Shown here: piece by piece, positions 2,400 through 63,005 of the stretch
Position numbering within the stretch: position 1 is the stretch's first letter
How the letters are laid out: each line of letters starts with the position of its first letter
From: Perna viridis
Taxonomy: Eukaryota
Assembly (NCBI GenBank): GCA_037379345.1
Contig: CM074523.1
Span: 31,573,678-31,637,677, forward strand
Reading direction: 5' to 3'
Length of the DNA stretch: 64,000 bases
Translations under genes and position numbers: made by a program
The notes under the pieces: generated by a model
What the model saw: the letters and a program-made list of their open reading frames with translations, nothing else
Databases searched by the model: none
Told to the model about the DNA's origin: nothing

Positions 2400-3305
2400 G
2401 AAAGTCGTATAGAGACATGAAACTACCACTGTACATCTCAGAATACCCTGACCTTGAAAAAACTTACAAGGTCAAGGTCACAAACCGGATTCTGCAAAAC
2501 ATTTAAATTGTCATAACTTTTGAACAGGCAGTCTGACAGTTGTAAATTTTGTCTCAAAATGTAGGGCTTATCGAGAAGGTCATTTCATACGCTGTATGTA
2601 TGCACTTATCTCTTATCGGTTTCATAATGTCACTGTAGTTTGCAGTGAGAAAGCTTTCTACCACTCTATGACCTTTGACCTTGGATGTAAATGTAAGGTC
2701 ACATGGACCAAAGATCATGGATGAAGGTCCCATGTTTCCACAACTTCCGGTTCTCAAATATAAATTTTAAAAACTTAAGTATGATATTTCAAGGGATATA
2801 ATTCCTGTATGGTATAATAAAATATATGTTTATGTTTATTCATTAGGTCTGCTTATATACAGGAGACCTTTTCTAGACTTAGTCTATCTATTATAGTTTT
2901 CAAGATATCAGCAATTAAAAGAAATTATTTTAGGGGACATAATTCTTAAAGATGATAATGAAATCCTTAGCTGGGTCATTTCCTAACAGAACATAGTGAC
3001 ATCTACATGTTCACTAAATACGGTCATGATATCCTGAAAAATGAGTTCGGGGACCACGTTGAAAAAAAAACCGCAAATAAAAGGGTGATAACTTCTACAA
3101 TGAATAATGGAATTCTTCACAGGGTCACTTTATAAAAGTCCTTAATGAACTCTATCGATGGTCCAAATTTGGTAATGATATCTTGAAAGACTAATTCGGA
3201 AGAGCTTGTCAAAAAAATTTTGCAAATAACGGAATAATAATAATAAAACAAAAACAAAACATTATAAAAACAATATTTTTTTTGCCATGTAGGGAAAGCC
3301 CTTAA
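2400..3305. repeat. Non-autonomous Helentron-associated (HINE-like) repeat, copy 2
   Basis: Paralog of 590-1320; ends with an (AAT)n microsatellite, then AACAAT and a short hairpin before CTTAAT, as in bivalve HINEs. Confidence 0.6.
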
Positions 3306-4774: not shown

Positions 4775-5180
4775 TTTTCTGTCAGTCGAGAACACACGAA
4801 TTAATTGTGTTTGTTTCTGTTAGTCGAGAATACTTAAATTTTGAGTTATGTCAGTGTCTGTCAGAAGAAAATACATCGAGCAGTACATGTCAGTTTCTGT
4901 CAGAAGAGAATACACAGATTTGTGTCGATTTCTGTCAGTAGAGAATACACCGAGCTGTGTCGGTTTCTGTCAGTAGAGAATACACCGAGCTGTGTCGGTT
5001 TCTGTCAGAATAGAATACACCGAGCTGTGTCGGTTTCTGTCAGAATAGAATACACCGAGCTGTCTCAGTTTCTGTCAGTAGAGAATACACCGAGCTGTGT
5101 CGGTTTCTGTCAGAATAGAATACACCGAGCTGTGTCGGTTTCTGTCAGAATAGAATACACAGATTTGTGTCAGTTTCTGT
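4775..5180. repeat. 35-bp minisatellite (~11 copies), TTTCTGTCAGTAGAGAATACACCGAGCTGTGTCGG
   Basis: Direct tandem units; homogeneous core at 4929-5160. Confidence 0.92.
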
Positions 5181-5469
5181 GTATTGAAGTGTGACAAACA
5201 TTATATTGAACAATTGCCTTTTTTTTATCTGTGCACATTTCATAACAAAAATCTCAAATATTTACTGATATCACAGTGATATTTTTGTTGCTTATAAAAT
5301 AACCATTAAATGTGCATGTATTTACACAATTGTTGGTTAAGTTTCTTTTCTTTGTAAATTTCAAACAAATTCATTGCTTTCCTTTTTGTTGTGATACTAA
5401 GATACAAGTATATATATTGGTTTATATTTAGCAGTAGTTGGACTTGATGACATGTCTCTGTAAAGGTGG

Positions 5470-6135
5470 ACTTGATTTAGACAGATTTTTGGAATATTCA
5501 TGAGTTGGTTTAGACAAGTTTAAGGATTTACTAGGGCTTGTTTTAGACAGAGTTTTTGGATTATTCATGAATTGGTTTAGACAGGTTTAAGGATTTACCA
5601 GGACTTGTTTTAGACAGAATTCTGGATTATTCATAAATTGGTTTAGTGATTACTCGGGTTTTTGTTTTAACATATTTTTAGATTATTCATGGTGTGGTTT
5701 AGATAGGCTTTTAGATTATTCACGGTATGGTTTAGATAGGCTTTTAGTTTATTGATGGTGTGGTTTAGATAGGCTTTTGGGTTATTCAGGTTTACTCAGA
5801 CAGGTTTCTGGTTTATTCAGGGTTTGGTTAAAACATGTCTTTGGAGTATTCAGGGTTCACTTTAGACAGGTATTTGGATTACTCAGGATTGGTCTTACAT
5901 GTTTTGGGATTATTTGTGGTATTGATAAGACACGTTTCTTGTTTATTCAGGATTTGGTTTAGATACGTTTTTGGATCACTCAGGGTTTTACTTAGGCAGT
6001 TTCTGGATTGTTGAGGGTTTCGATAGACATGTATCTTAGATTATTCAGGGTTTCGATAGACATGTATCTTAGATTATTCAGGGTTTCGTTTAGACAGGTT
6101 TTTAAGTACTCGGGGTTAGATAGATTTCACTATAG
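5470..6135. repeat. Degenerate ~33-36-bp tandem array (GGTTTAGACAGG..GATTATTCAGG), probably expanded subterminal repeats of a Tc1/pogo-like MITE
   Basis: Ends in AGATTTCACTATA. The same GGTTTA(G/A)ACAGGT motif occurs in a short element at ~16836-16983 that begins CAGTAAAGCATGTCTGAACC. Confidence 0.6.
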
Positions 6136-10756: not shown

Positions 10757-10944
10757 AGACTTGACCTTAGTCCTGCTCTTCTCTTTGAACTCCGACTTTA
10801 CCATAGTCCTGCTCTTCTCTTTGAACTCAGACTTTACCTTAGTCCTGCTCTTCTCTTTGAACTTAAACTTTACCTTAGTCCTGCTCTTCTCGTCGAACCC
10901 AGAGACTTTACCTTTAAGTTAGTCGTGTTGTTCTCTTTGAACTT
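10757..10944. repeat. 36-bp tandem repeat (~5 copies), GACTTTACCTTAGTCCTGCTCTTCTCTTTGAACTCA
   Basis: Direct units immediately 3' of the YR remnant. Confidence 0.9.
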
Positions 10945-11222
10945 CTGATATGTTTTATAGTATTGCATTGTAGTTATTTCATTTGATTTTGTTAGTGTTA
11001 TGGAAATTTTTATAGGTCAGTGTCACATAATGTGCTGATTTGTATAAATGTATATGATACACTTCTTGAGACGTTTAGATTTCCTGTACGCACGATATCT
11101 AAACGCACACTAAACGCTCACCAAACGATCGATAAACAAACCTTCTATCGTGCGTATAAACGAACGCTCCTATCCAATCGTGCGTTAAAACGCACGATAC
11201 GATAAAAAAGCTCCTAGCGTGC

Positions 11223-13820
11223 TAGTACGAATTTCCTCTGACCCTGCAACCCTCCTCTTTTTTATTTGGATATTGACATGTCGGGTTGGGGTCAGGACGA
11301 TGTGCCATACAAAAAGTTGGAGATTCAGCGGTACCGCGGAGTATCGCCCTTCACGCGCTTCGTACGACTTTCATGTTAAAATCGTGTAGGTGATGCATAC
11401 CTAGTTCGATTCGGGATTCATTTTTCTTTATGCTGATGTACGTTTTATCGGCTATTTGTCATAAAATCTCGGTAAAAAGAAGTCTGAAAGCCTTAACCCA
11501 GGGTCAGCACTCATTTACTTTCGATTTCCAACTTTGAGTGACGCAAGCGAGATTTGGTCATCCTGTTAGAAACATATTCTGAAAAAAAAATATGTTTAGT
11601 TGCATATGATGAGGCACACTGCATATCAGAATGGTATGTTGTATATAGTGACAAAAAGAAATGTATGCAGTACAGTTAGAAATCTACATGTCTTGTGGAT
11701 GTACATAAAATGACAATTGCAACCTGGTAGCTGCCTCCCATGTGTAATAACTTATGTTTTACATGAAAAAGGGCATTTTTTGTAAAGGGTTATTGTTCGA
11801 GCTGGCACACATTGTATATTTATTTTTTTTACAATACACAATAAAAACCATATTTAATTTTACAGGTGATTAGATTTTAGGGAGGACCATAGAAAAGTTT
11901 GAATTATTCAAAGTGAAATAAATTCCACAATTCTCAATCTAACTGCAACTTCAACCAAAGACATAAGGACATATCTGTTGTATTGGAGCTAAGTGAGGCA
12001 TCTGATGTGTCAGTTTTATCGAACAATTAAAAGTTATATATACATGTACATGTACATTTGTATATCTGCAAATTGAAACAATTAATATTTGTGTTGGCTC
12101 TCAAATCCTAAAATCACAATGTTTTTGTACAGAATGATGTTTTTGGCATTGATACAAAAAAATAATTTGTAAAATGGACCATGTATTATGTTTTATTATT
12201 CTGTCTTCGTTCAATCTCTGAAGCATCGACCATTGTATTAGCAAGGGGCAAGTGATCCAAATTCCTGAAAGGAATATTTTACTCCTCCAATGAAAAGAAA
12301 ATAATGATTTTATGTTTCCCCAATTACTAAACAAGACATTTTTTTTCAAAATGAAATATTGATTTCAGTTGCTTCTGAGTTAAAACTAAATGTTTGTGCA
12401 ACATAAATTTCTTATTTGACATCAAATCCCTGCCCCCTAAATCCTACAAGAATATTGTCACTGGAAGATGTAACTAAGTTTACCAGTGTATAAACATGTT
12501 TTATTTATGATGCATGCACATAGTAATAGAGACAAGTGCAACATTTTGTTTAAACATGTAGGTACTCAAGTAAATTCCAAATCAACTTTTAATTAACTAA
12601 TGTGAATGTTATAACTCACCATAACATACTTAGGTGAAGAAAACTCCTCAGCAATTAAACAAATTGAAAGCAAATGCGAAACCCTACAGTACAAGAATGT
12701 GTCCAACTTAAAATAAAAAGCTTTGCCATATGCAGCATGATACAACCACAGTCAATTAAACTCTGCAAGTGTGGACACAATATTAGTTATTGACACACTT
12801 AATATAGAGTCTTACAGTTCATTATGGACATAACAAATCATTTGGACACAATATTGCACATTTTGAAATTCAATACAAGTATAAATGTCTGCTTTAGAGT
12901 GCATTCATGGATCACTTTGTACTTCATTATCTCAAAAAATATGATTTGTTAGGGCGTGACTTCCTTTATAATTTGAAAACTGCAAAAGATATTTGAAATC
13001 TAATTGAAAAAACGCAGGCAAGGATTTTGATGTGACATCTACAAAATTTTTCAAACCAAACCAGAAATAAACAAGTGTTTTTCCCCTTTATTTCTTGAAT
13101 CAAGGGGAAAAAATACTTGTTTAAAAAATAAGTGCAAAACATATTTATAAACTGCTATTTAAAAATATGAAGCAATTTAAAATCTAGAAGAAAATGTATA
13201 TGATTGCCTTCTGCCCCCCCCCTCCAACACACACACACCCAATGCATTTCCAATATTTTAATAACCTGCTCGAAAATTGAGTTTAAACAGTTGAATTAGG
13301 GTATTCTAAGGATGAGGTGCCACATGTACTATTTTACACATCTAAAAAATTCACAGTTCAACCAAAAGTAATTGTAATTTATAAATTGGATCCAACCACG
13401 TGTTTTCATATGTTGTTCCAGTGCACACGCTTGTTTAGACACACAAAGAAGGCGGTGTCTGTTGATCTCACGTGACGGAATTTCATTTGCATACGACCAA
13501 ATCTCGCTTGGGTCACTCAAAGTTGGAAATCGAAAGCAAATGGCTGCTGAACCTGGGTTAAGGCTTTCAAACTTCTTTTTACCGAGATTTTATGACAAAT
13601 AGCCGATGAAACTTACTACAGCATAAAGAAAAATGAATCCCGAATCGAACTAGGTATGCATCACCTACACGAAAGTCGTAAGAAGCGCGTGAAGGGCAAT
13701 ACTCCGCGGTACCGCTGAATCTCCAACTTTTTGTATGGCACATCGTTCTGACCCCAATCCGACATATCAATATCCAAATAAAAAAGAGGAGGGTTGCAGG
13801 GTCAGAGGAAATTCGGACTA
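11223..13820. mobile_element. Academ DNA transposon, AcademH-type (helicase-bearing), internally deleted non-autonomous copy
   Basis: Ends TAGTACGAATTTCCTCTGACC / GGTCAGAGGAAATTCGGACTA; TIRs ~11223-11559 and ~13495-13820; exact 9-bp TSD CTAGCGTGC (11214-11222, 13821-13829); RecQ-type helicase remnants inside. Confidence 0.88.
11590..12030 (+). pseudogene. RecQ-like SF2 helicase remnant (motifs II and III) within the AcademH element
   Basis: 11590-11633 reads ICLVAYDEAHCISEW, followed by a GTATGT...TTTACAG intron. From 11866 it reads LDFREDHRKV*IIQSEINSTILNLTATSTKDIR, with a stop and frameshifts. Confidence 0.85.
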
Positions 13821-14185
13821 CTAGCGTGCGTTTATACGCACAATAGACGAATAATGAAAAATAATAATATTAACAAATAATGACAAAAGAAAAAGTAGAA
13901 AATTGAAATAATGAAAATATATAAATTAATAAAAGCAAATAATATGAAAATAACAGTTGAATCAAGGAAATAATCAAAGTACAAATTAATAAACGAACGT
14001 TTCCTCGTGCGTTTAAACGAACGCTTGTTTCGTGCGTTTATCGTGAGTTTAAACGAATGCAAAACGATGTGTTTCCGTAGTCGAACTCTCCCGTCGAATT
14101 TCTGATTTTGCTTTGCAAGACATGATCTTAGTAATTTTAACCGAGTTTTGTCATTTTAATAATCATTATGAAAATTAATATCATA

Positions 14186-14635: not shown

Positions 14636-17600
14636 CTGAAATAAACAACAATATCGCAATACAAAACCAAAACAGGTATAAAGAGACATTGAAGAAAGGG
14701 TTAGCGACATATTATCCCTTAAAAATACTAAGTCTGGACCTATTTCTTTTTTTCTTGAGCAATCTTCACTTTGCACACTTCGGAAGCATTATATTATACG
14801 TAATTGTTCGTTTCTAACCATTGCATGAATCTAAACTGAAATCCTAATTGAAACAAAGCGGCTTTCTGACACCTACATGCATTTTTTTCATTATTTTTAT
14901 TCATAAACACATATTTGTTTTTCTGAAAATTCAAAAATGCTTTTTCGTACAATCAAATGTTTCATAATCAAATAAGATTTTAAAGTTGTTGTCCTCATTT
15001 TTATTGTAGAACATGAGAATTTTTAAAAGACGTGACAAATGCCGCAATATTTTTGACTTTTTATCTTAAAGATATCGTTTGATATCATAAAGACTGCATA
15101 TAGGAGTTTAACAAACCTCTCTGATGGATCAAGATTGCATACAGGAGTTTAACAAAGCTTTCTGGTGGATCAAGACTGCATATTTGAGGTTAGCAAAGCT
15201 CTCGGATGGATCAAGCCGATTTGAGCTGTTTTCTTTAATTGTTATACGAACTTTAAACAGAACTTAACCTGAATGTCAACTAATGCAATAACGAATTTTG
15301 TAGAATGCTAAAACTATAGAAATGACATCCAAAAGGCAAAATTTACTTGTCGTCTGTATCCACGATGAAGATTACGTAATATCCGGTAATAGCAGGCGAC
15401 AATAATTAACAGCGGGATGACGTAATTAGTTGCTGTCACTGTGATGAGGATGACTTTACCGAGTGTTTCATCAGGCCACACCTCCTGGCAATAAACATGA
15501 CTTTCTCTGTAAACTGTTCGGTGATACATTGCAAACGGAATAGATATAAAACACGCCACTGCAAAAGCAAATAACTAGTTCATCAAAAATTGGCAAAAAT
15601 ACAAAAGCGTAAATAATAAGACAACTCAGAGACACCGAAATCCAAATCGTTGCATGGCTTCAATGACGAAACAAGAAAAAAAGACGGTCTACATACAGAA
15701 TGTAACAGAAAAAAAATAAAAACTGAAGATTAGGGAACAAGAAAAAAAACTAAACCGTGAGTAACATTAGGTGAGCCGGATGGATCGAATCAGTTGATTT
15801 CATCAATATTCAATATTGAACAAACAACATTAAATATACAAGTTTTGAATAATCATTTTTCATATCTACGGAAGGCAAGCCATTTTAGCAAGGTTTTCTT
15901 TTTTTAAATGGACATAACCACCAACACACGACAATCTGGTTGGCGGTCTCGTTTGGAAGAACAATTTATTTTTCTTTGAACTATTTTACTTTGGTACATA
16001 TAATTACATGTTGTACCTAAATGGTTTGAAATAAATTAATGTATGAAATAATTTACCGTACATCATATATTTGAATTTGAAGTCTACTGCTGTCCATTGC
16101 TCTAACAGGAGAGTAAATCAGTCTGTCAGGTTGGAGAGTTACTGAGTTACTTCTTTTTTTAAAAAAAGTCAAAGTCGGGAATATTAATAAGGTCTATTGT
16201 AAAAGGACAATCACTTCTTCGTACTTATTTTTCTTTTATTAACTTCCCTCTTCACAGTCACAAAGCAAATGGTTGGTACCTCATCATTCGGGTTACAAAT
16301 GGTCTTTTCAAACATTTCTGAACAAAATTATATTTGTAATCATCTGCATGTGTTACCAAACTACATATGCCTACCTGTCCAAACAAGAAGACATGTGATT
16401 GTCGATATCCGTCGATTTCTCCAATTTATAGAACTAAGAGGGTGGACTATTGCGTAATACCTATCTATAGTCATCGCTGTTAGTGTGAAGGACGTGGCAT
16501 GTAATGTTACCTGCAACGATATAAAAAAAAACATTTTTTAAATCTTGATCTTTTCGGTACTTCTATACATACAATCCGTATTAAGCAATTACAAATGTAA
16601 TTTTACGGTAAGATCACATTTAAAAACAAAAAAAAACTGAAGCATCAGCATCATTAACATAAAACTCTTAAGGTTTAAACTAAGGTGTTCCGGAAGGATA
16701 AGCAGTAAACGGAAGAAAGTTGAAATAAAGCAGAGGTAATCATAGACAGAGTAAAATAAGCCGCATAAAAAATGACATCCGCAAACTTAAAATATTCGAC
16801 TATATCTCTAAAGCAAACTTTAACTTATACATGTAACAGTAAAGCATGTCTGAACCAAGCTGTAATTTTAAATTTATCGGTTAAGACAGGTACAGTGTAC
16901 ATGTAGGTGTTCGGTTTACCAAGGATCAAAATACATTAGAATTGATGTAAAAGTGTATGGTTTAAACAGGTTTCTATTCAGTGACCGGCACTCTAGCACA
17001 TTGCTTAAAAAATAACCATCGGGAACCTATCTTGCAGGTTGTACGCCAAGCGACTTCCGAGTTTCAGCACCTTCGGTGCTTTGATTTTTAGAAGAACTAT
17101 GCCGTACTAATACCTCGCAATGTTTTTTTTTTCATCTGATTATCATTAGCTCATCAAATTTCAGGTGTTAAATCAACTTGATAAACAATTACTCCTACTT
17201 AGTTAAGTGAGATCATACCTTTACAGGTTTTTTTTTAAATTTTAGTTTCTTTAGTTTAACAGGAAAAATATTTCGTTAATTGACCCCGATCATTACATGT
17301 ATATAATTTAATTTCACAAGTAACACGGATTCTGATTCGTCAATCATCATCTCACAGTTATCACTTCTGTATCCAAGCTTAAGGCTATTTTACATTTCAG
17401 AGAGCGTCCACAAAAAATCCAGAAAGTGGGTGGTATAAATGCACTTTTTTTCCCTTTGGGTCAGCCTTAACCACAAAACAATCGTCTAATACAGATATTG
17501 TATTCCCTGCAATGTTAACTTTAAGTAGGGACAGGTCTAGGAACGTCTTTGTGTTGTACTGCATTTTTTCATTCCGGGCTACTAGTTATCGGTATTTGAT

Positions 17601-23600: not shown

Positions 23601-24949
23601 GCACTCCTCTGACACTACTTGTCCAATTTCAACCAAATTTAGTATGAATGTTTCTTAGGGTATCGCGCATAGAACTGATGTGGGGATATTTTATCCGTCA
23701 AAAAACATGACCGCCGTAACTAAAAATAGAACATAGGGCTCACGCAATAGTTTTTCACATATATCTCCAAAACCGTTAGGTTAAGCCAAATTCTCATGTA
23801 GGTAGAAGAGTTCAGCATAATGGGATCTATCTGTGGTCATATTTTTCTTTTTAATCTGTTATTTTCCGCCCGATTATTGCGCTAATTGTTTGTCTGGAAT
23901 TGCTTTAAACAGTGTAATGTCACTTAAAATTACGCTCTTTTACGATGTCTTTAACTAAAGCGCTTCACAACATGTATGTGCAACTATGAAAGTATTATGT
24001 TTTCGTTGCAATGTCTTTGAAAATGAATTACATGTACCAACTCAAACCCTGACTTGGGAGAATGACTCTGTGACTTTAAAAAGAACCGATCAAAATAGTT
24101 TTCGATATGTATAAAGTGGCAAAAACACTTGAGCTTTAAATCAATCCAAAGATAAATTGGGATCAGAAAAAAAGATACATGTACATTTGTTCTAACGTTG
24201 GGGTAAACGCTGAACAAGCGTAGAGCATGCTCAATATACGCTTCCGAGCGAAGAAAATTATTTTTGTTCTATCCAAGCCCTACCTCAAGGAAGTTAATAT
24301 TGAGCTTGCTCACCAACTTACCACAAAAGGGTCTATTAATATGTTAAAAAGGTGTGTGGTTTTAACGATAAGAAAAAGTAATTCGTAACTCGGCTGTTTG
24401 AAATGTATTTACATCCCTACTTTTGTTTAAATGTTATATGCAGTTTTACAACAGCTTCTGGTAAAAAAATATTTAAAACTTAAAAGATGTATTACAAATA
24501 CTCACATAGATCATGTAAGTTGTAATCCTGCAGATAAAATCCCCGAACAACCAGTCTGGGTTCGAGTAAGAGGCAGCGGTCGACGGAACTACGATGAGAA
24601 GAAAAGTCAGATCCGCTACGGCTAAATTAATTATGTAACAATTCGACGCCGTCATGTCACCATTTTTGCTAAGGGTATATATAACTAACCCGTTCCCTAA
24701 AGAACCAAGGAATACCAACAGAAACCAGATTGAAGGAACAAGCACTGTGTATACTGGACGACCAAAAAACGGGTCATCATCTCCGGAAACATTCCTTGTA
24801 TGTTCCTGAAAATTCTCTATCTGGTTATTAACCGTACTTATGTGGAACGTCATTTGGTAAACTAAAGATGAATTTTCTGTTAAAATCTCAACCTTGTCTT
24901 TCCGGTCTGAGAAAGTAGCCTCTTGAAGAAGTAAATTTGTCAAATTCAT
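14186..24949 (-). CDS. Class A neuropeptide GPCR, kisspeptin receptor (GPR54)/galanin/allatostatin-A receptor-like; 4 coding exons (24949-24506, 16510-16375, 15558-15347, 14635-14186), 413 aa
   Basis: The spliced translation gives all 7 TMs: GN (TM1), NLAVAD (TM2), WLFGDFIC, TLTAMTIDRY (TM3), VW (TM4), YVIPL (TM5), FAIFWFP (TM6), AHTLSYTNSCLNPLIY (TM7). All introns are GT-AG with consistent phases (0,1,0). Confidence 0.93.
15090..15215. repeat. 41-bp tandem repeat x3 in GPCR intron 3
   Basis: AAGACTGCATATAGGAGTTTAACAAACCTCTCTGATGGATC and two variants. Confidence 0.85.
15347..15558 (-). CDS. GPCR coding exon 3 (TM4 end, ECL2, TM5)
   Basis: TTGCAG|(V)ACFISIPF...YCQEVWP...NYVIPLLIIVACYYRIL...RRQ|GTAAAT. 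Confidence 0.92.
16375..16510 (-). CDS. GPCR coding exon 2 (TM3 DRY to TM4)
   Basis: TTGCAG|VTLHATSFTLTAMTIDRYYAIVHPLSSINWRNRRISTITCLLVWT|GTAGG; absent from the ORF track on this strand. Confidence 0.93.
17755..17940 (+). mobile_element. Degenerate Naiad-type PLE 3'-end fragment
   Basis: CCTACCGGTGCAC...AGTGGAGTCCGA...GGTTCCTTTG. Confidence 0.65.
18160..18502. repeat. Dispersed MITE-like family (copies ~44050-44390 inverted, ~49465-49680)
   Basis: Shared AATCAGAAA.ATGCAT.TCAAAA and GCTTTCTCTATTTGAAAA...TTATTTGATCTCT. Confidence 0.7.
19929..20133 (+). mobile_element. Naiad-type PLE 3'-end fragment
   Basis: GGACCCTTACCCTACTGGTGCACCTGG...GGTTCCCTTGATTACTCT. Confidence 0.85.
23262..23350. repeat. 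~32-bp tandem repeat x3
   Basis: AATGAACGATAAACTGAACCATC core repeated. Confidence 0.8.
24506..24949 (-). CDS. GPCR coding exon 1 (N-terminus, TM1-TM2, start of TM3)
   Basis: ORF 24473..24949; ends ...YMIY|GTGAGT donor, phase 0. Confidence 0.92.
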
Positions 24950-25190
24950 GTCCTCAGTATAGTAAATAAATTAAGTTTAGTAAAATTTGGAGGTTATTCA
25001 ATAATTAGCCGTACTTATCTAGAACGTCATTTGGTAAACAAGAAATAAATTGTCTGTTAAAATCCCAACTTTGTATTTCCGGTTGGAGAAAGTAACCTCT
25101 TGACAAAGTAGATCCGTGTAATTCATGTCTTCAATACAGTCAACAAATTAATTCTAGTAGAAGTCAGAAGTTATTCGATAACTATTAATC
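24832..25190. repeat. 177-bp tandem duplication spanning the GPCR start codon
   Basis: CCGTACTTAT..GAACGTCATTTGGTAAAC occurs at 24832 and 25009. Confidence 0.9.
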
Positions 25191-26408: not shown

Positions 26409-26760
26409 TTAAGAAGCAATCCACATAAGAATCATGCAAAATGTGATTCATGGTTAGAAAGCCTACATATTTTTATTTTGAAATTTTGTTTAAAATGTTA
26501 AAGTAAACAGAAAGTAACATTTGGTTTTTCATATAACCCATGTTCATAGGAGATAAAAATTATATGGAATGCACTGTAAATTTCAAAATTAAGGGAGATA
26601 ACTCTGTAAATGACACTCAAATACAATAGAATCTATTGGATTTTCAATGTTGATTTGAATGAATAATTACACATATCATAATATAGACCCATAAAGCAAC
26701 TTAATTACAAAAATAAAAAAATATGAAGCCTTTTTTGTGGTGTATCACCTTTTTTCAGAT
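26409..26760. repeat. Dispersed MITE-like family (inverted copy ~60195-60570)
   Basis: CATGCAAAATGTGATTCATGG...GGAGATAACTCTGTAAATGAC matches the reverse complement at 60365-60547. Confidence 0.8.
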
Positions 26761-28635
26761 TTTGCATGATTCTTACAAAGACAGCCACTTAAGCCTTCCC
26801 AGATGTAATTCTATTACACTATTCTCATCAAGTGATACTTCGCCCATATATAGCAACATGTGGTGGGTAGAAATAAAGATCAGAAGAATGCACGTTTTAA
26901 TGTCTTTTTTTCTTTACTTCTATCCACCCTAGCAACATGGCGGTGTACCGTAAACAAAAAATGGATCCCCTTCATTTTATGTATATACATAACCCAAAAT
27001 CATATTAGTTTGAACAAAATTAATCATGAAAAAAAAGAACTTAATGGTCTACGTAATTTATAGTCTTTCAAAAGACAAACTGATATGCAAGATTTGTCTT
27101 TAATTTAGAAAACAAAGCTTAATCTTTATTCTACAAACTTGGATTCGGAAACTGGAAGCAGATTACTGGATGCTTAAATCCAATATGAAATGTGGACGAT
27201 ACAAAAAGTTACTCTGTCATAAAATGATATATATACTTGAAATAATCATTAAAAAGTTGTGACAAAACACATCGAACAATGGAAAATAATTGTGTATGCT
27301 TTAGAAACGTCAATCATGATTCACATACATGTCTAAGACTTAGTTACCCTGGATCATATTACTTGCACATACGATACTCAATATTATGTTAGGTCTGGGT
27401 TGAACTTACCGCTTGAAAATTAACCCGCCTCGAAATTATTATCTTTATTTAAGTATAGGTAGCATGAAATTCGCGAGAGAGAAAAAACACGACTTCATAA
27501 TGGTGACGACTTAATATCAATGTATGTTTATCATGAAACAACAACATGAAAAAGACCAACATTAATCACGAGTGCTCACTTTGTGTATGTTATATGGACA
27601 CAATATGCATTTAAGCTGATACAGTCAAATGTATGTACGGTCCATTGTGTCAGTAGATGTCTGTTAGTAGTTGGAGGTAGCGAAGCCCAGTCGTTCGGGA
27701 TAAAAATGTACTTGACCGAAGAACTCAGACAGAGTACATGTATGTTATACTAGCAGTCGGGCTACTCTGTTGACGCTCTGGATACTCCCATATCTCACGT
27801 GGGTCCGAGAGCGTCTCCCCACTCTGTTTGATGGTACGTCAACGTGGAGAGAGTTAGTCCATTTGTTACTCTTACAGGCTTTATGTTCATGAAAGGGGTG
27901 GACCTAAAATATTGGGGTAGGGGTCGAGATCAAAAGCATTATACAAAGACGGTAAGGGGGGCATCCCTTCACCCTTATCCGCCTTTGTGTGTGTTATTTT
28001 TTGTTTAAACTTTTGTTAAACTTTTTAATTCATGTAAATGTCTATAATCCATAATTCCATTATTATGTCATCTTTTTCATTTACTTACATACTGGTAATT
28101 GATAACATTTCAAATGACATTGACAAACAGATATGTGAGATTTGTCTTTTAGAAAACAAAGCTTAATCAATATTCTACAAACTTAAAATCAGAAACTAAA
28201 AGCAGATTACTAGATGTTTATAACCAATATGAAGTGTGGACGATACAAAAAGGACTGAAACCTGAACTGTCTGATACATGTACATGTAACTCCGCCATTC
28301 AAATATAAAGAAAATCAAACCAAATCAGAAAAAACAACTTTTTAACAATGAGTTGATTGGTTCAATTTATAAATATAGATTTATTGTTACAAATTATCTA
28401 ACTGTCTGTTGAGGGATCAGAAATCCCCTATTTTGTTGGAAAATTTTGTAAATTCCGTGCAAAATATGCGCAAAGAATAGTCTGGAACCCCAATTGTTCG
28501 GGAACCTAATAATTTTTATTCCTATTTGTCTTTGTTTTTTTATCACAAACATTTAGATAACTCAATTCAATTTTTGAACGAACGCATTGCTCGTGAATAT
28601 GATTTTATACTAACGGCTAAGTTATTAACGGGTGG

Positions 28636-29083
28636 CTCCAGTGCGGGCTGGTATTGACGGCTAGCCTCCAGTGCGGTCTGGTATTGACGGCTAGTCTCCA
28701 GTGCGATCTGGTATTGACGGCTAGCCTCCAGTGCGGGCTGGTATTGACAGCTAGCCTCCAGTGCGGGCTGGTATTGCCGGCTAGCCTCCAGTGCGGGCTG
28801 GTATTGCCGGCTAGCCTCCACTGCGGGCAGGTATTGATGGCTAGCCTCCAGTCGGTCTGGTATTGACGGCTAGCCTCCAGTATGGTCTGGTATTGCCGGC
28901 TAGCCTCCAGTGCGGGCTGGTATTGCCGGCTAGCCTCCAGTGTGGTCTGGTATTGACGGCTAGCCTCCAGTGTGGGCTGGTATTGCCGGCTAGCCTCCAG
29001 TGCGGGCTGGTATTGACGGCTAGCCTCCAGTGCGGGCTGGTATTGACGGCTAGCCTCCAGTGCGGGCTAATATTGACGGCTAG
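28636..29083. repeat. GC-rich 30-bp minisatellite (~15 copies), GCTAGCCTCCAGTGCGGGCTGGTATTGACG
   Basis: Direct units; explains ORFs 28567..28821, 28654..28866 and 28863..29096. Confidence 0.95.
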
Positions 29084-30155: not shown

Positions 30156-31091
30156 GTTTTACGCTATCTTCTGTTAATTTTTATGACCTTTTGAACATCA
30201 TTACATTTATAAGACATCAAATAGCAAAGATTGGTCATGATAAAAACAAAAACAAAATTTCTTATTGAGATGTTAAGGTTTCCAGCACGCACGATACCTT
30301 AACGCTCGCAAAACGCTCACCAAACGCTATGCTCGTCCGATGAAAAAGTACTTACAATTAATGAAGAAATCGAAAAAAAAGTATCGTTAGAATATTTTAA
30401 AATAAACAAACGCTTCTATGGTGTTCAGCCAACGCACGATAATCGATGCAAGAACGCTGAAATTGGAAATCTTAATGTTTCAAGGAGTGTCACAAACAAA
30501 ACCATTTCCGGAGCCCCCGTATCCCTTTTTTAACAGCACTGCAAATCATACATGTACATGTACCTGTTACATTAAACAACATACGAAGGACGATTATTTC
30601 AAAGAATCTCTAAAATATAAGAGTTGCTTTATGCAAGCTGTTGTTTCTGTCAGCTACATTGATATTTTTATTGTTTTGTTCAACGTACATTTATTCGTCC
30701 CAATCCGCGATATTTTATTTCATGCCGCTTGCCTTTCTTTTAAACTGTCCATACTTAACTGTCCCATGCGATCTACGTTAAAATTTTGGCACGTGTTAAC
30801 GTTTGATCTCAGATGTTTATCTTACCAAAACTGTTGTTATCAATAATTAAAAATCTAACAACGGCGAAAATAGCACCCTTTCAAACAGTTTATAAAATAT
30901 AAAATTAAATGCGCATTATCTAATGAGGCTTGAAGATTTGTCCGTGTTCGGTATCGCTGTTCAGAATAAATTTCGATGCTCTCTGCTTGAACCAAGATTC
31001 GGAGGTGACCAGCATTGCCTGTGATCTTGCGTTTTCAATATATCTTGATAAATATGATGCTTGCGTGTATAACTTAAGAGAAAATTTGAAG

Positions 31092-34100: not shown

Positions 34101-37100
34101 GATGACCTATCATTCGATTATAAAACTAAAACGTTCAAAAAGTAACTGAAGACTGTGACACACGATAGTTAAATTTTGATTAAAAAACATAAGTAACTGA
34201 AGACTGTGACACGCGATAGTTCAACTTTGGATTAAACCCACTCGCTGTAGATCGTGGGTTGAAATCTAATATTTAGCTATATCGAGCGGAGAAATCTTGT
34301 CACCCCCGAGACTGAAGGATAATCTTAATTTCTCCCATTCTTAGCCAGTGATTTAAAGTACACGTGACTTTTTAACCACCTGGCGGTGACTAAATTTCTG
34401 CGAATTTACATTTTCCGAGCTTTACAAATTTTATAGGACAAACAGATTCTCCCTGAGCCTATTCTTGATTTAAATTATTTCTCCACTTCTGTGCTAAAAT
34501 TAAGATAGTAACATGCTCGCTAAAGCTCGCAAATTGAAAACAAACATCTTAATTTTGCCATCTCGAGCGGAGAAATAAAAAAAAATTCAATACTGAAGGA
34601 AGCTCTATATGTACACAAAAGATTAGAAACAAACTATCACCATTAACGGATGAGTCTAAGCTCTACCTATAAAGTTAATTTAAACTGAATTTTTCCAGAA
34701 AAATATTAAGCAATTACGAATTTTGAAAACAGGAAAATTATAACAAAATTTTGCATTAGGACCATAATTTAGAAATCGAAACAGGAAGTTATAAGAGTAT
34801 ACATTTTTGTACCTCGAGAATATGATTGTAACAATAAACTAGAAAATGATTTCCATTTTTTTTTCTTTACTGTCGAAAAAATAAAATAAAATAAACATTA
34901 TAAAGTCAAACTTTTTGAGATATGTAAAAATATAATTTCAGATTTGTAAACAGCTGTTGTCGGCTGTACAATGTATGTGCATGTGTACCTTCGTCAACGA
35001 TCATTATAGTCGGAAAAAGGGTCCACACCGGTCAAAGAGTAAAATTGCATTGACTTTTTATGAACAATGCAGCGGGGGTGTTCTATTGAAAAACAGAGTA
35101 CGCTGACCCTTCCGGTGCACCTAGTCCGCGTTCCCAGTTTTAGTGGAGTCCGATTTGCTCATTTACTTTTGTTTTCTTTGTACGTATTATTTTGGTTATT
35201 TTGTGTTTTTTGTTGTGCGTTTGTCTGTTTTCCCTGTCTTGTCTTTGTCTCTGGATTGTGTTATTTTGATTTTCACTAGAATCTTGGTTCCCTTTAATTA
35301 TTCTAACATTTGTCTAATTTGCATTTTGTTGTACATATTTTTTGTCATACCTATTATTGGTGTAAATTGCAAAATAAAGTTCTTATATATATTTTTTTTC
35401 TTATGTGTCGAGTTTTGTTTCCGTAGTGCCTGCACTTATTAATTTAGATATCTCATCTTGTGTTTATTTTATTTCATAAGCGGCAATTTACTCATATACA
35501 TGTATTGTGCATATTCGTCGCTGATGAGCTGAGTCTACAGTTTTAGCGATCTTAGGGTCGCTTATGATATTGACTATGGAACCAAAATAACACAAAATCA
35601 TACTGGTGTAACAATGCCTGCATAATTGTATAAAATAAACGTAGAACTAACAAAGATTTCTCTTCAAATAAACGTTTCAACTGGTTTACAAGTTTTTAAT
35701 GGTAAGTGTCGTCCACGAAGAGGAACGAATTTCCAGAACACCACTCGTTAAATGTCCGGCAACTATTCTAGCGAACATAATATATGGTGATTTTGTCACA
35801 AGTGGACGATCTGAATTACCATGTACAACAATTGACTGACATACATTGGCATAATGCATGTGCCATTTGATGATAACCCTGTTGAAGACTGTCTTTTAAG
35901 TTATTCCATTTCTCAAATGGTCTGATTAAATAAACAATCTCCTATTATGACGTTATTTTTTCATAAACAGAAGGAAAATATATTAGAGTTATACAAGTAC
36001 ATGTATGATCCTTTAATGATAATGGATTATTTATACATTTACCAAATTGAATTTTAGAAAAAGAGTATGAATGTCAAGTTTATATTCCTTTTTTTTAGCT
36101 TCCATTCAATGTACCACGTCGGATTACGCTGGAGTTGTCGACCCTGAGAGTTATCATGATAAATATGAAAACAAAGTCGGTTTGTAAACATAATTTATAT
36201 GTTTATCATTTTACAAAATATCGAAATAAAACCGAAGCGTGATCAATTGGACAATTCAAAAACAGAAAAAACACAAACAAAACAAAACAAGTAAACGAAA
36301 CACTTAAACAAAAAAGCGATCGAAACCTTTCTTGTTATGACCGGAATTAGATGTAGCCTCAAACTCCTTTAATTTTAATTGTTCCTAACTGATGTGTAAG
36401 TATTGCGTTAAATTGTACTCACTTGACTCCCTCTGATATTTATCAAAGTAACATCGTGTTAGAAAAGAAAATTAGAGAATTCACGATAAATTTTAAAAGA
36501 AGTCAACTAAGATAATTATGCATAAGCAACACTTGAACAAAGCATCGTGTCAAGCATCGTGTCAAACTTCGTGTCATGCATCGTGTCAAGCATCGTGACA
36601 AGCATCGTGTCAAGCATCGGGTCAAGCATCGTGTCAAGTATCGTGTCATGCATCGTGTCAAGCATCGTGTCATGCATCGTGTCAAGCATCGTGTCAAGCA
36701 TGTCCATTTCAGTATTGATCTCTAATACTTCTCTAATTCTAATACATATTTTGAGCTTTCCATTTGCAAGTTCAAATAGCAATTACATTATTCCCGAGAA
36801 TTAAAACAATTTTAACGAAAATAGTCATTCCTAGTACACGTAAGGCCATATTTAAAATAAATGTTGTTTCATGGTTCTCGTGAAAAATGCTCATTAACCA
36901 AAGTTGTATTCCTGCCTTCAAATGTTAATGTATCTGTTCAGTTTCTAAGTCTTGAAAGGGAACACGAAATAAACATGAATTATTACGTTTAGACTAATGT
37001 GTTCATGATTATGATTGGTCTATCATTTTTGTGGTTAAATATGACCCAATATGTTTATGACTATCTTCGTCCTAAAAGATCTATTATTTTGGGTGGCCTA

Positions 37101-40100: not shown

Positions 40101-43100
40101 TATATATATCAAGTCTGAAGGAATCTGCCAACCAGCAAACGTATTTGGACATACATGTACTTTTTCTATATATGCACATACTTTTTCTAAATAAACTCAT
40201 ATTTTTTTTATGACGCATATAGTTCATTGTATGCACATTCTTTTTTTTCATACATAGAAAAGTATAGATGCATATATGGAAGCAATTACATGTATTAAGA
40301 CAGTTACACATATATACGGCGTTCCATACTATGACGTTTCATAACATAATCTTTTTTGTTTTTTTGTATATATGGGTAGTACAATTATAACAACGGTCAA
40401 CTTATTTGTGAAGCTAATCGACGGGTCAGGTAGAAGGGAGGTTTCCCGGGATTTTAAATACCCCCTTTCTAGATACCGACAAACAAATACCGGAGCGTCA
40501 ACAATGCTACAATCAAAATCCTAGTACACATGTTCATGGCCTGAACGTAAAAGCAGAAAATAAAGACAATTCGCATTATTATCCAAATGTATATAAAACT
40601 GAAATTAAGACATGCGAAACTTAACACACACACACAGAGCAAAACTAAGGAACTAGCACTGTATACTTTATACAAATGTTTCAGATGCTCCGGAAGGGTA
40701 AGCATGTATACCCATGCCGCAGCACCTGTCATGTTATAACTGAGTATAATTCGGTTATAATCTAACAACTATAACGCAGCTCCCTGATACAAGTCACAAG
40801 AGGCCTCATCATATTTTTTTACAACAGTGTTATCTTTGTGCATTTGTTGTTGCAAAAATGAATAATCAAATAGCCAATAAAACGTCTTTTAGTCTCACTT
40901 TTACATAATTAAGAATCTGCGCCTGGGCTTATATTTTCTTTATCGACATAGCTTTCGACTTCGAGCAGTATGCATTTAATGCATAGGGGACATCTCGGGA
41001 CGCGGACATACGGGTCCGTGCAGTGCAACTCGGACCGCCATCGATACAAAACGGACCGTAAAAAACAGGTTACTTCGCTTATCTGAAACGATATTTCGTA
41101 CCATAATAATGATGAAGGAGGTATAGAAAAAATCCTAAAACTTAACGAATTTCTAAAATGAAAACTCAGGCATTCCTTAAAAATAAAAGTTACACTCAAT
41201 TTTCTGTTTTTAAGGAGAACTGCTGGAACAGAGGTTCTAACATATAGTGACATCAAGAATGATGATAAATTAGTATATCACGACGAATCGATGCCGGATG
41301 TTCACGTCGGAGGAAAACATACATTTCCGAAGGATGATAAGAAGGACAGAATGTATGCTGTAAAAGCACATTTGGCGCCGGGTAGGTTTTGCCGATTTGT
41401 TTATATGCCTTTTTATCTAAATCGAACAACCATTTTTTTGTTTTATATTATGATTGAAGATCGGACATAGCAGTCACCTGAGCACGTTGATTTGTAAAAT
41501 CTGTCTGCACCCTTTGAGAGAAAAAGTTATATCGACATTGACAAAGTTGAGATTTCGAAGTCCACTGGATTAACATAGATTTTTGTACAATATCTCAGTC
41601 GTAACATGTATATTAGGTAACTTCGAATTATGAGAATAACCTACATGTACATATATATTACATCGTATGCACATGTGCTGATTAACCCTGATCTATTTGG
41701 AGTTTCGATTATTTATTTGGGTGCTTGTGACTTTCAAATCATTCACATGTGGCAGTGATCATTTCCATTTACATGTGTAAGTACGTTATCGCCCGGATGT
41801 TAAGACATTAAAGAAAATTAGTGACACTATGACAAGTCGTAGTGTTTTTACTTGATACCTTAATAGCATTCTGCATATACAGCTATCCGTTATTTGAATT
41901 GAAGTTCTGAGATTAAAGCTTATATTACTCATTCCATATCAAAGAGTAATCAAGGGAACCAAGGTTATAGCGGTAATCAAAAGAATGTAATCCAGGGACA
42001 AAGACCAGGCATGGGAAACAGACATACACAACAAAGAACATAAAGTAACTAAAATCATACATCCAAAGTAACAAAAGTAAATGAGCAACTCGGACTCCAC
42101 TAAAAACTGGGAGCATGGACCGGTTGCACCGGTAGGGTAAGCGTCCGCTGCTTTTCTAGAAACACCTGCCGAGTTGCTCATAAAAAGTCAAGACCGGGGT
42201 AGACAAACGAGGAAAGGAAAACTATGACCCGTTGAATAAATCAGTTTTCATGGTGCTGATAGATACACCATAACGATCCACGAGTTCATGATGACGACCA
42301 TATAACTTCTGTAGTGATGACTTCAATCTTGTAGCAACATAACCCTGTTCCAGAAGCCTCTTTGTTAGAGTTCTAGCGCGATACAAAAAGTCTGCGTAGT
42401 TTCGGCAAGCTCTGGCATAACGTATGAGTTGTGATATGAACACTCCATACGCAGGAGCCGAAGGGATGTTGCCACAGATGAAAGGAAAGTTGACAATTCT
42501 GAATGAAAAGTCATCACGTTTGTCGTAAAGTTTGGTCAATAGTTTTCCTTTACCATCGATTTCTAAGTGTAGGTCAAGATATGAGGCTGACTTCACAGTG
42601 TCTGTAGTATCCTTTATCTCAAGTTCTTTTGGGTAGATACGATGTATCAAATCCTCGAAATTAGGATTGTTTAAAATTGTTTAAAGATAACATGTCATCT
42701 GTATAGCGAAAACTGAGATTGAAGGATCTAGCTAAACAATATTCTTTCTTTCTGATCAGATCAGCTATAAAGTCAGCCTCATAAGAGTGAAGGAATAGGT
42801 CAGCTAGTAAAGGGGCACAATTTGTTCCCATTGGAATGCCGACCGTTTGTTGAAAAACACGTCCACCACACTGGACAAATATGTTGTCGATTAAAAATTC
42901 CAGCATTTTGTAAACATCTTCCTTTGTATATTTGGAAGATGATTTGGAATTATTTCTTACAAAGTGTAAGGAATCTCTACCAGGAACTATATATTTGTAT
43001 CTAGGTGTACCATCTTTTTTGGAAAAACAACGATGTATAATGTTTTTAAGTCGGGATTTTAACTGAGTTTGGGGAATAGAAGTATACAGTGTTGAAAAAT

Positions 43101-46100
43101 CATAGGTTTTAATGCTATTATATTTAGATAATAGTCTTGAACTGATTGTCTCCAAAAGATCTTTCAAATTATTCAGGATCCACATTGAATTAATACCACT
43201 ACGGGAGTAATTTGACACATCACAAATGTACATGGGTACTTTGATATTTGTATGCAACGATATACATGTACATGTGCTTGTCAAATCTTTTCATTTTAAA
43301 GTGCTTTTAAAATCTAAGTCTAATTCTTTTTCTCAATTTTAATTCAATAACTCTTAATTAAAGGCTTTCTTTCTACTCTTTAAAGGATATCACATGCCAG
43401 CCTGCTAAGCTAGTAATTTGAATATGTTTTGTATACCCTTTGCTCATTTGTAGAACGTATGTTTGGTAATTCAAAGCTTTATCACCTCTACCACACTCGG
43501 TACAAAACACCTCTTTATGTAATTTAGTATAATACTCTGTAAACTATTTCACTTATTTTCCCCCTTTTTAGAGAGGTTAAAAGCTTATGGGATTATACGT
43601 AGCATTTCAGAAAGCGGATCGATATGTCTGCAGATGAGAGACAGAAAAAAAACCAGCAAAAACAGCAATTTGCTTGTAACGTGACTTACATATAATATAT
43701 AACTTCAGAAGAGACAAGACCATTCGGTGCATTCCGATTTCGGTGCATAAAAGATTGAATAATTCAAGGTTAAGAACTTCCTCTGTCATCTTCCAGTCGT
43801 TGTTGCATGATCACAAACTGTGTTTGTTTAAAATTTCAGGTTCACCGCCAAGCTTTGTTAACCTACCCGATAGCGTTACAATGACCGATTCTATATTTCC
43901 GGGTTTTACAGTCTTTTCTCCGGTGATTACCGATGCTAATCCATTAGACACACACAATTTTACACACGCTGGCAGCCTTCCGTCGTATTTTAGTATTGAC
44001 GTAAACACAGGTACAATTAAGTGTTTACCAGTCCCTGTAAGAATCAGGCAGTAGGTGAGACACGGTAACCCATCATTTTGAAAATGTCCTTTGACTGTTT
44101 GCACCATCAGAATAAGGAAAACAGACAAGATTGTCTATATCATGCTGGACCATTGAGTTACAATTTCATTGAAATGCGATGAAAATAAACATAACAAGGG
44201 CAGATAACTCTGTCAAAATTCTCATTTTTCTAACATTCTATTGAAAAATTTCTGAACAAAGCCAGTGGTGCAGAGATAAAAAAAGGTCTTTTCAAATAGA
44301 TAAAATATCCTTGAGTGATATTACATTAATTTGTCAGATCGGTGGGGTTTCGACATGCACGTTTCTGATTTTTCCCATTTTGCCTGATTCCTACAAATAC
44401 TTACATTTAATGTTGATTACATTGAACACAAAGGTCAGTGGAATGAACACTCTGGTTTTCACAACCAAAGTTTAGTAGTTTTATTACGGTTACTCATACT
44501 ATAAATTCTATCTGAACAAAACAATTCACTCGCAAACTTGAAGGGAAGGAGTAATCAAGGGAACCAAGATTCTAGTGGAAATCAGAAGAATGTACATTTA
44601 ATCCAGGCACAAAGATCACACATGGAAAACAGACAAACATAACAAAGCAAGTTTCATAATTGGACTGTTGTTTTGTTTAAAAAGATACCAACTATCTTAC
44701 CTCGCTTTGTTCAAATAGGTTAAACTTTAAAAAAAATCAGAATCCACTGATTTTATACTCCTCAAATGAGTTCATTTCTTTAAGTACAGTACTCATACAG
44801 AATGTAAATTATTTTGATGAAATTCAGATTGCATTACATGTAAAAGTAGTGGTTTCATAAACTAGTAAAACATAGAAAATCTTTCTTTGTTTCTGAAGGT
44901 GTAGTGAAAGTAGCTAAGGAACTATTGCCAGCAACGTTTACCATATATCTTGTTGTGACTGATATCTGTGGACTGCAGGATACCCAACAGCTATCGATAA
45001 CTGTGACAGGACCTAATCACGTACGTACAGGGACGATCAGTTCTAGCAATCTCTGTACATTAGGATAAAGATTCAGATTAAGCTGGTTTATATCATAGTA
45101 CGTGGGCTGAGATAATCTCACCCACCACTGATCAACCAAAATATGATTTTCAGGTACCATTATACCTCCCTTTTACGATTTTTTTTGTCGCCAAAATTAA
45201 ACTGAAGCATTTTTGTATTTTTTGGTAATTTTTTATATCTCGTTGAAGCAAAAATCCATTTTTTACGTTTTTTGATTCTTTGAACTTATTCTTTCTTCAA
45301 AACGAAGTTAACTGACATACATGTATTTATAAATCATCATGTCTCAGCTTTACAATGGTACTAAGAAAGTTGCGGTAACACTTGGGGTTTTGGGGTAAAG
45401 CTAAAAAAATGTACCCCATACCCCACCGAAAAATTGCTTAAATTTAGGAATGTTGAATACATCGATATATGAAACGCAAGTATCCATCATTGATTATATG
45501 CTAAAATTGTTGTTTTATTCTTCTCGTAAGTGGAGGTAGCAATGTTTCGCTTAATTGGACTTGAACAAATTCAAATATTAATTACTCCGGCGCATTAGAC
45601 AAATTTAAATGTATTTGAATGTAAAATAGCTCGTTAGAGTATTTGAAAAAAATTGCCAATTACCGGTGAAATTGAAGGAAAAATGAAATTCCGAAAATTC
45701 ATCTTTTTATGAAAAAAAACTCATAATTGGCATAATGAATCTTGAATAATACGCACCTGAAAATAGCAGGTATACTGAATACATTGATGATTAAAGCACT
45801 AGTACCCAACTTGTATTTTTGTTATCGATTACAATGTATATGCAAAAAAATAACATTTGAGATCATGTTGAGGTACTTTCAGGGTTTTGGTTGGCAATAT
45901 TTCACCCATTAGTAATTGGTCGTTGAAAAAAGTTCAAATATTTATTATTTATTATTTATTATTTATTATTTGGGCTCATAAAAAGCTAAAACAGTATATA
46001 ACTGTATTTGAATATACAAAAGCTTGTTTGAAATACCGTAACGGTGTTTGAAAAAAAAAGCAAATTACAGGTACATGTAAAATGGAAGAAAATATAAAAT

Positions 46101-62519: not shown

Positions 62520-63005
62520 ACTGTCCTAAACTGTCAGAAGAACAGTTCTCAGGCTATTCTAGGGCCAGTTCCTCTGACAGTTCTAGCATAGCCGACTCTC
62601 GTAGTGCAGGTCTAGCATAGCCGACTCTCGTAGTGCAGGTCTAGCATAGCCGACTCTCGTAGTGCAGTTCTAGCATAGCCGACTCTCGTAGTGCAGGTCT
62701 AGTATAGCTGGGTCTAATAGTAGAACTGTTTTCGTAACGCCAGTCCTGCTAAAACTGTCAAAAGAGCTGGCTCTAGTAATAGAACTGTTTTCGTAACGCC
62801 AGTCCTGCTAAAACTGTCAAAAGAGCTGGCTCTAGTAGTAGAAGTGATCTCGTAACGCCAGTCCTGCTAAAACTGTCAAAAGAGCTGGCTCTAGTAGTAG
62901 AACTGTTTTCGTAGGGCCGGTTCTGCTTGAAGAACCGTCATAAGAGCTGGCCCTAGAACTGTTCTATGACAGGTGGCTCTTTGAGAGGTTAGAACTGATC
63001 CCATC
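62520..63005. repeat. Foldback-like composite: inverted outer modules enclosing a 29-bp x4 and a 59-bp x~4 tandem array
   Basis: (TCTAGCATAGCCGACTCTCGTAGTGCAGG) at 62582-62700; a 59-mer at 62713-62950; outer inverted matches 62531-62584 vs 62931-62972. Confidence 0.8.

Follow-up and report, generated by a model that had tools for sequence, protein, structure and literature searches.

Transposons of the AcademH type have long terminal inverted repeats (TIRs) and intron-containing genes. Their target site duplications (TSDs) are 9 or 10 bp long, those of AcademX 3 or 4 bp, and the short account in PMC10045372 links this difference to the presence of a helicase in the former and a nuclease in the latter; on what the helicase does in AcademH, this account offers no more than a correlation with the length of the TSD. 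A RecQ helicase is also encoded by KolobokH, which the excerpted part of PMC9587614 reports from fungi only, the TSD of Kolobok elements being TTAA (4 bp). Academ elements are described as expanded in bivalves in the portion of PMC10294476 used here. We analysed a stretch of 64,000 nucleotides from Perna viridis (contig CM074523.1, positions 31,573,678 to 31,637,677; hereafter the window), in which positions 11223-13820 are occupied by what is very probably an internally deleted, non-autonomous AcademH element that would move only with a transposase provided by an intact relative. As far as AcademH is known from citing passages and general background, the element shares with it the 9-bp TSD, a RecQ-type helicase, long TIRs, the TAG..CTA termini and an animal host; it differs from AcademH in being non-autonomous and 2.6 kb long, with about 78 codons left of a broken helicase gene and no transposase identified. 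The element and its ends comprise the following parts:

11223-13820, 2598 bp: whole element, with the termini TAG (11223) and CTA (13820)
11214-11222, plus strand: left TSD copy, 9 bp, identical to 13821-13829
13821-13829, plus strand: right TSD copy, 9 bp
11223-11559, plus strand: left TIR, 337 bp, with TAG at its start and a probable deletion breakpoint on its inner side
13495-13820, minus strand: right TIR, 326 bp, ending with CTA, paired with the left copy
13423-13494, no strand: GC- and CpG-rich stretch inward of the right TIR, judged from its composition as likely TIR sequence

The two TIRs are identical at 310 of 326 aligned bases with a single 11-bp indel (blastn, E 1.5e-140), and their differences are eight transitions and eight transversions (Kimura two-parameter distance 0.051). 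The 9-mer CTAGCGTGC is found exactly at both flanks, and these are its only two occurrences on either strand of the window. Nine bp is the longest duplication flanking the element; it is in register with the TAG and CTA ends, and the neighbouring outer base does not lengthen the TIRs. The termini, the TIRs of about 330 bp and the perfect 9-bp TSD proposed in a preliminary description of this locus are thus all present. No open reading frame (ORF) of at least 150 amino acids lies within the element, so that a track of ORFs would miss it, as that description had also pointed out. In 185,579 prokaryotic genomes the TIR pattern had no match. An outward-facing AATAAA is located about 40 bp from the end of each TIR (11261-11266 and a match near 13777) and could terminate transcripts leaving the element. 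The AT-rich interior contains a 56-bp hairpin (13068-13123), whose 27-nt arms are 81% complementary.

TSDs of about 9 bp and long TIRs are also traits of MULEs, which capture gene pieces together with their introns. A TIR element of another kind, for instance a Pack-MULE-like one, might therefore look similar if it had taken up a piece of an intron-containing helicase gene, and the cargo does begin abruptly at the TIR edge. The termini are different, however: in the supplement of PMC10294476, all 14 bivalve MULE consensi compared (14 of 39) start with G and none with TAG, whereas TAG opens 36 and TAC three of the first 39 of 100 bivalve Academ consensi. Several of the latter share their first seven bases with the right end of the element. 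In addition, the cargo is the kind of gene described for AcademH and not a random host gene, which makes a captured piece quite improbable. The element resembles the bivalve Academ-1 families of the same source in its TAG start, but these families are autonomous consensi with a mean length of 5565 bp that were chosen for an ORF of more than 300 amino acids. If Academ-1 in this source means AcademX, as we infer, then TAG ends are shared with AcademX as well, and KolobokH encodes a RecQ helicase too (PMC9587614). Membership in either group is nevertheless extremely improbable: as far as the sources extend, KolobokH is confined to fungi and has 4-bp TTAA TSDs (PMC9587614) and AcademX combines 3-4-bp TSDs with a nuclease (PMC10045372), whereas the element has a 9-bp duplication and a helicase cargo and gave no nuclease match.

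Directly inward of the left TIR, remains of a helicase gene were found:

11560-11633, plus strand: helicase exon piece (exon 1), truncated at the 5′ side, with the DEAH motif (motif II of superfamily 2 helicases, RecQ type)
11634-11865, plus strand: intron of 232 nt, GT-AG, phase 2, splitting a tryptophan codon
11866-12024 (3′ end approximate), plus strand: second helicase exon (exon 2), with the aromatic-rich loop and the motif III region

Spliced together, the exon pieces give a single reading frame that leads from the DEAH motif through the aromatic-rich loop to the motif III region; the motifs are named as in RecQ helicases. The intron-split RecQ-type cargo of the preliminary description is confirmed by this arrangement. 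Exon 1 is 60-64% identical to short helicases of bivalves over 25-30 amino acids, and with a profile of 13 related helicases exon 1 scores 27.7 and exon 2 23.1 bits. The rest of the window, searched as 432 six-frame chunks with profiles of the relatives, reached 4.4-5.7 bits at best (4.4 bits with the profile of 13 helicases), so the window contains no further helicase exon. A phmmer search with the 45-aa ORF of exon 1 in 1.84 billion representative sequences yielded four matches with E of at most 0.001; an earlier homologue search with this ORF had given no candidate. In the ESM Atlas, exon 1 led to DEAD-bearing clusters with scores of up to 0.84, which we regard as a lead only. Pfam gave no match for the exon pieces or for the six frames read with X, the pieces being too short and broken, and none of 40 matches to helicase-subfamily patterns was confirmed.

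Two premature stops are located in exon 2 (11867-11869 and 11900-11902), at positions where the relatives have glycine. A frameshift follows near 11962-11965, beyond which about 20 codons are aligned by collinearity only; taken alone, this last part scores only -1.5 bits. Altogether, the remnant comprises about 78 residues, corresponding to approximately positions 116-185 of the 435-position profile. Neither the Walker A motif nor any of the second RecA domain is left, so no working helicase can be made from it. A run of nine A in exon 1 (11582-11590) coincides with one extra residue compared to the nearest relatives, and the frame is kept. The candidate exons of the element contain three premature stops (11867, 11900 and one on the minus strand near 12752), each of them TGA, which is probably due to chance. 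A recoding of TGA was rejected, judging from the host genes, which give no sign of it, and from the pieces, which are also deleted and frameshifted.

In three of the four relatives matched by phmmer, those that were compared, homology to exon 1 ends at the same codon, the position of the intron. In one relative (P0004) homology resumes at the same residue after an intron-like stretch of its own, with 16 of 33 residues of exon 2 identical (E 6e-10). The intron position is thus ancestral to this helicase group.

Of 8000 proteins scored, 99 were retrieved with an alignment seeded with the helicase fragment. The seven best are named mollusc proteins of 305-468 amino acids from Solemya, Mytilus, Ostrea, Mercenaria and Patella, with E values from 1.7e-39 to 1.2e-11. 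They are followed by four proteins of the same short type and then, at E 1e-6 or worse, by ordinary RecQ proteins. These short helicases (about 460 amino acids) consist of DEAD and Helicase_C domains and a cysteine-rich tail, without RQC, HRDC, RecQ zinc or exonuclease domain. Over 72-74 residues the fragment is 50-56% identical to the Solemya/Mytilus/Ostrea group, compared to 38% for WRN, 28-31% for BLM and 28-46% for 17 bacterial RecQ proteins. Solemya KAL5007298.1, Ostrea XP_048755624.2 and Mytilus CAC5398329.1 belong to the same clade as the fragment, and other close relatives share the intron position; in contrast to the fragment, the short mollusc helicases are intact or nearly so, are labelled as host "recQ" or "WRN-like", and are known here from proteins alone. 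The cargo had been called badly decayed, which is overstated: it is heavily deleted but contains only two stops and one frameshift, and the fragment is as close to intact relatives (41 of 73 residues identical with Solemya, 39 of 72 with Ostrea) as the intact Solemya and Ostrea proteins are to each other (39 of 71, 55%).

The nearest cluster at 90% identity contains nine Solemya accessions on contigs of five different sizes. Ostrea edulis has two copies and Mytilus trossulus three, on different large chromosomal contigs. Relatives that are dispersed and near-identical within genomes are what would be expected for a mobile gene. One Solemya gene model (P0105) fuses a short helicase to a C-type lectin domain, which is probably a modelling artefact. 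A search for longer proteins returned host WRN, BLM, RECQ4 and RECQ5 as well as bacterial RecQ, and no helicase-transposase fusion was found by Pfam label among the best 120 of 384 matches.

A maximum-likelihood tree was calculated from 43 rows (15 short helicases, the fragment, one WRN, six BLM, RECQ4, RECQ5, one fungal and 17 bacterial sequences), with the fragment added to a fixed alignment; many other matches of both protein searches are left out of it. The fragment is placed in a group of seven short-helicase rows (support 100/99), and all 16 short helicases are split by a long branch from the 27 host-type RecQ rows (100/100). Approximately unbiased (AU) tests rejected the placement of the fragment with WRN (p 0.0026, one WRN sequence) and with BLM (p 0.0033, six BLM sequences). 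These results bear on the idea that the remnant is a pseudogene piece derived from a host RecQ gene (WRN, BLM, RECQ1 or RECQ5), or of a domesticated short RecQ, that was caught between repeats. The best PDB matches would agree with such an origin (WRN, BLM and bacterial RecQ for exon 1, E 0.007-0.6; RECQ1, weakly, for exon 2, E 0.8), as would the names "recQ" or "WRN-like" that NCBI gives to some of the nearest proteins, but the rejected placements, the long and fully supported branch and the dispersed, near-identical copies of the relatives make it highly improbable. Grouping of the helicase with host RecQ, BLM or WRN had been set in advance as a test of the AcademH proposal, and the test did not refute it. 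The short mollusc helicases (P0005-P0011 and P0104-P0119) form a long-branch clade of their own, are often multicopy and are likely transposon-borne.

Altogether, the element combines a TSD in the range of 9-10 bp, long TIRs, TAG..CTA termini of the Academ type and the remnant of a RecQ-like superfamily 2 helicase distinct from those of the host. The combination of TAG ends, a 9-bp TSD and a non-host RecQ-like helicase agrees with AcademH, whereas each rival agrees with it only in part. The deleted AcademH element of the preliminary description is supported by the ends, by the length of the TSD and by a helicase that is placed apart from host RecQ, WRN and BLM.

Several points weigh against this assignment. 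No second copy of the element lies in the 64-kb window, where the terminal 18-mer with up to three mismatches has two matches, the element's own ends. The Academ consensi compared are all labelled Academ-1, and none has this TIR in its first 400 bases; the TIR motifs had no match in the part of the PMC10294476 bivalve library that was compared (first 400 characters per entry). The description of AcademH used for the assignment is a secondary one of two sentences (PMC10045372), and no transposase was identified in the element. Of the ten helicase clusters consulted, five are singletons. Placement of the fragment with the second short-helicase group was not rejected (AU test, p 0.068). WRN is represented in the tree by one sequence, and neither a mollusc WRN nor RECQ1 nor a Repbase-named AcademH helicase is included; the fragment fills 18% of its columns, and the short helicases in it were retrieved with the fragment itself and are known from proteins, not from their genomic context.

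A further candidate exon is located on the opposite strand:

12762-12620, minus strand: candidate exon of 143 nt with a CAG acceptor, a branch-like motif and a GTGAGT donor; one stop in its 47-codon frame

The same splice criteria, which were set post hoc, apply to one of the 41 other GT(A/G)AGT donors in the window. It probably represents one exon of another gene that faces the helicase gene. A possible transposase exon had been suggested at about 12620-12780; the exon itself looks real, but the transposase label found no significant support, and transposase is an unproven candidate and the most economical guess. Pfam gave no match for this exon, and its top score in the ESM Atlas was 0.78, with no family. 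Aligned by hand to nodes 386-415 of the Academ RNase H profile in the excerpted part of PMC5751038 it reaches about +6 bits, which is not significant; by eye, the fit consists of few matches including an invariant tyrosine, and two other strongly conserved nodes are missed. An inverted helicase exon carrying Walker A (0.1-1.8 bits) was considered for the same stretch and rejected, as 97-418 of 500 shuffles match the scores obtained with six helicases.

The inner borders of the TIRs point to the way in which the element was shortened. Helicase homology abuts the left TIR in the middle of an exon, and about 70 bp of TIR-like composition continue inward of the right TIR, so the left TIR was likely cut by a deletion. 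The bin 13423-13522 has 47% GC and six CpG, compared to 23-38% GC and 0-2 CpG in interior bins, and this composition makes it likely that the TIR once extended over 13423-13494 and that the matching sequence on the left was lost by deletion. The true TIR was probably longer than 337 bp. In the parent element, an intron-containing gene for a RecQ-like helicase (about 460 amino acids in relatives) would have run inward from the left end, and probably a transposase gene inward from the right end. The deletions that followed would number at least two, probably three: from the left TIR to the middle of the exon, of the 3′ half of the helicase gene, and 5′ of the minus-strand exon, where most of the second gene would have been lost. 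Such a patchwork would likely result from abortive gap repair of an excised copy, which the cited part of PMC2213677 gives as the usual model for deletion derivatives. Like Ds-type and other TIR deletion derivatives, the element has a mosaic of coding remnants of its parent between intact ends flanked by a TSD; unlike Ds-type derivatives, its parent belongs to a helicase-carrying lineage with intron-containing genes. The insertion most likely followed a cut-and-paste route in which the target was cut with a 9-nt stagger and the gaps were filled by host repair. An intact AcademH helicase is predicted to act in target opening or in clearing the strand-transfer complex, a role suggested by RecQ biochemistry and by the correlation with TSD length described in PMC10045372. 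The present element would be movable only if the cognate transposase, and probably the helicase too, were supplied in trans.

Whether the deletions and stops preceded the insertion bears on the proposal of the preliminary description that the element was mobilised in trans, implying an autonomous partner. We somewhat favour the view that a deleted, already inactivated form moved here in trans and assign the remainder to decay at the site. Specifically, a full-length AcademH element may have inserted here and been deleted and inactivated in place, which implies neither trans-mobilisation nor a living partner; we consider this a possible but less probable course. Neutral decay of 77 codons was simulated, with 2.5% per lineage representing the face-value age of the TIRs. 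The probability of at least two stops is 0.029 at this age, which speaks against decay in place, as does the need for several separate deletions. It rises with age, however, to 0.093 at 5% and 0.26 at 10% per lineage, which in turn weakens the case for transposition in trans. At the pairwise divergences that correspond to these three values, the probability of a perfect TSD is 0.63, 0.39 and 0.13, respectively, so at 10% pairwise divergence the intact TSD (0.39) and two stops (0.09) would both be compatible with decay in place. Conversion between nearby inverted repeats could make the TIRs look younger than they are. Also in line with decay in place are the left TIR abutting the middle of an exon, the extra TIR-like sequence kept on the right, and abortive gap repair as the usual source of deletion derivatives (PMC2213677, in the part cited). 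The argument for mobilisation in trans needs a cargo that looks older than the ends; the protein divergence fails to show this, so only the breaks count. Stops that predate the insertion, and hence mobilisation in trans, are therefore plausible and mildly favoured (0.03-0.09 for two stops arising in place), as a leaning and not a proof. A partner that was alive at the time of insertion need not survive today.

The element adds one well-bounded non-autonomous copy to the already described AcademH lineage. Many mollusc proteins annotated as "recQ" or "WRN-like" (about 460 amino acids, without RQC, HRDC and exonuclease domains) are probably transposon genes, a point of relevance wherever DNA-repair genes are counted in the genomes of bivalves. 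A copy with clean ends and TSD supplies the cis sequences for testing the role of the helicase, for which the partner genes are also needed. If this helicase-dead copy indeed moved in trans, it would be a ready-made donor for comparing transposase alone with transposase plus helicase, with frequency, TSD length and target structure as readouts.

The element interrupts an older dispersed repeat (11062-11127 versus 30261-30326, 83% over 66 bp), and the flanking repeat (11062-11222 and 13830-14066) is rich in short repeated motifs. The empty site, reconstructed by joining 11144-11222 to 13830-13847, is an imperfect palindrome that folds into a 97-nt hairpin of -30.0 kcal/mol with the 9-bp target in one arm. 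Shuffled sequences have a mean of -10.8 (standard deviation 2.3) and 0 of 200 are as low, with limits chosen post hoc at a single site. This would agree with an AcademH family that was active recently in this animal and whose helicase directs insertion to DNA able to form hairpins or cruciforms, but such a family is unlikely, and one insertion site cannot show a hairpin preference.

The window is AT-rich (30-38% GC) and contains intron-containing genes. Next to the element, three exons on the minus strand (24970-24476, 15574-15317 and 14788-14186) belong to a receptor gene of the rhodopsin family (Pfam 7tm_1), which is closest in PDB to the KiSS-1, apelin and galanin receptors; its exon carrying the DRY region was not found. 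The stop codon in its last exon lies 365 bp from the right end of the element. Between them is one poly(A)-like signal, ATTAAA at 14155, and inside the element AATAAA is found on the minus strand at 13087, 12500, 12192, 11819 and 11261. The element could thus touch the 3′ end of a kisspeptin/galanin-type receptor gene, and a read-through receptor transcript is predicted to hold a 326-bp stem. A 177-bp tandem pair overlaps the upstream frame of the first receptor exon.

Elsewhere in the window, Rfam gave no match. Reverse-transcriptase-like remnants at 42001-43290 and 63008-64000 are 89.5% identical over 1011 bp (RVT_1, E 0.0024, below the cut-off), and short end pieces of this retroelement are dispersed at 1354, 7665, 19929, 35050, 44546, 48250, 51144 and 59477. 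Two further dispersed repeat pairs are present, one inverted (26410-26792 and 60167-60569, 83% over 406 bp) and one direct (593-1285 and 2493-3190, 77% over 717 bp). Tandem arrays with periods of 12-177 bp are located at 4849-5180, 5468-6103, 10757-10914, 15090-15215, 24827-25181, 28636-29083, 36540-36701 and 62578-62956. A single ORF of 274 amino acids at 57758-58582 (plus strand) codes for two cadherin domains and probably a transmembrane segment.

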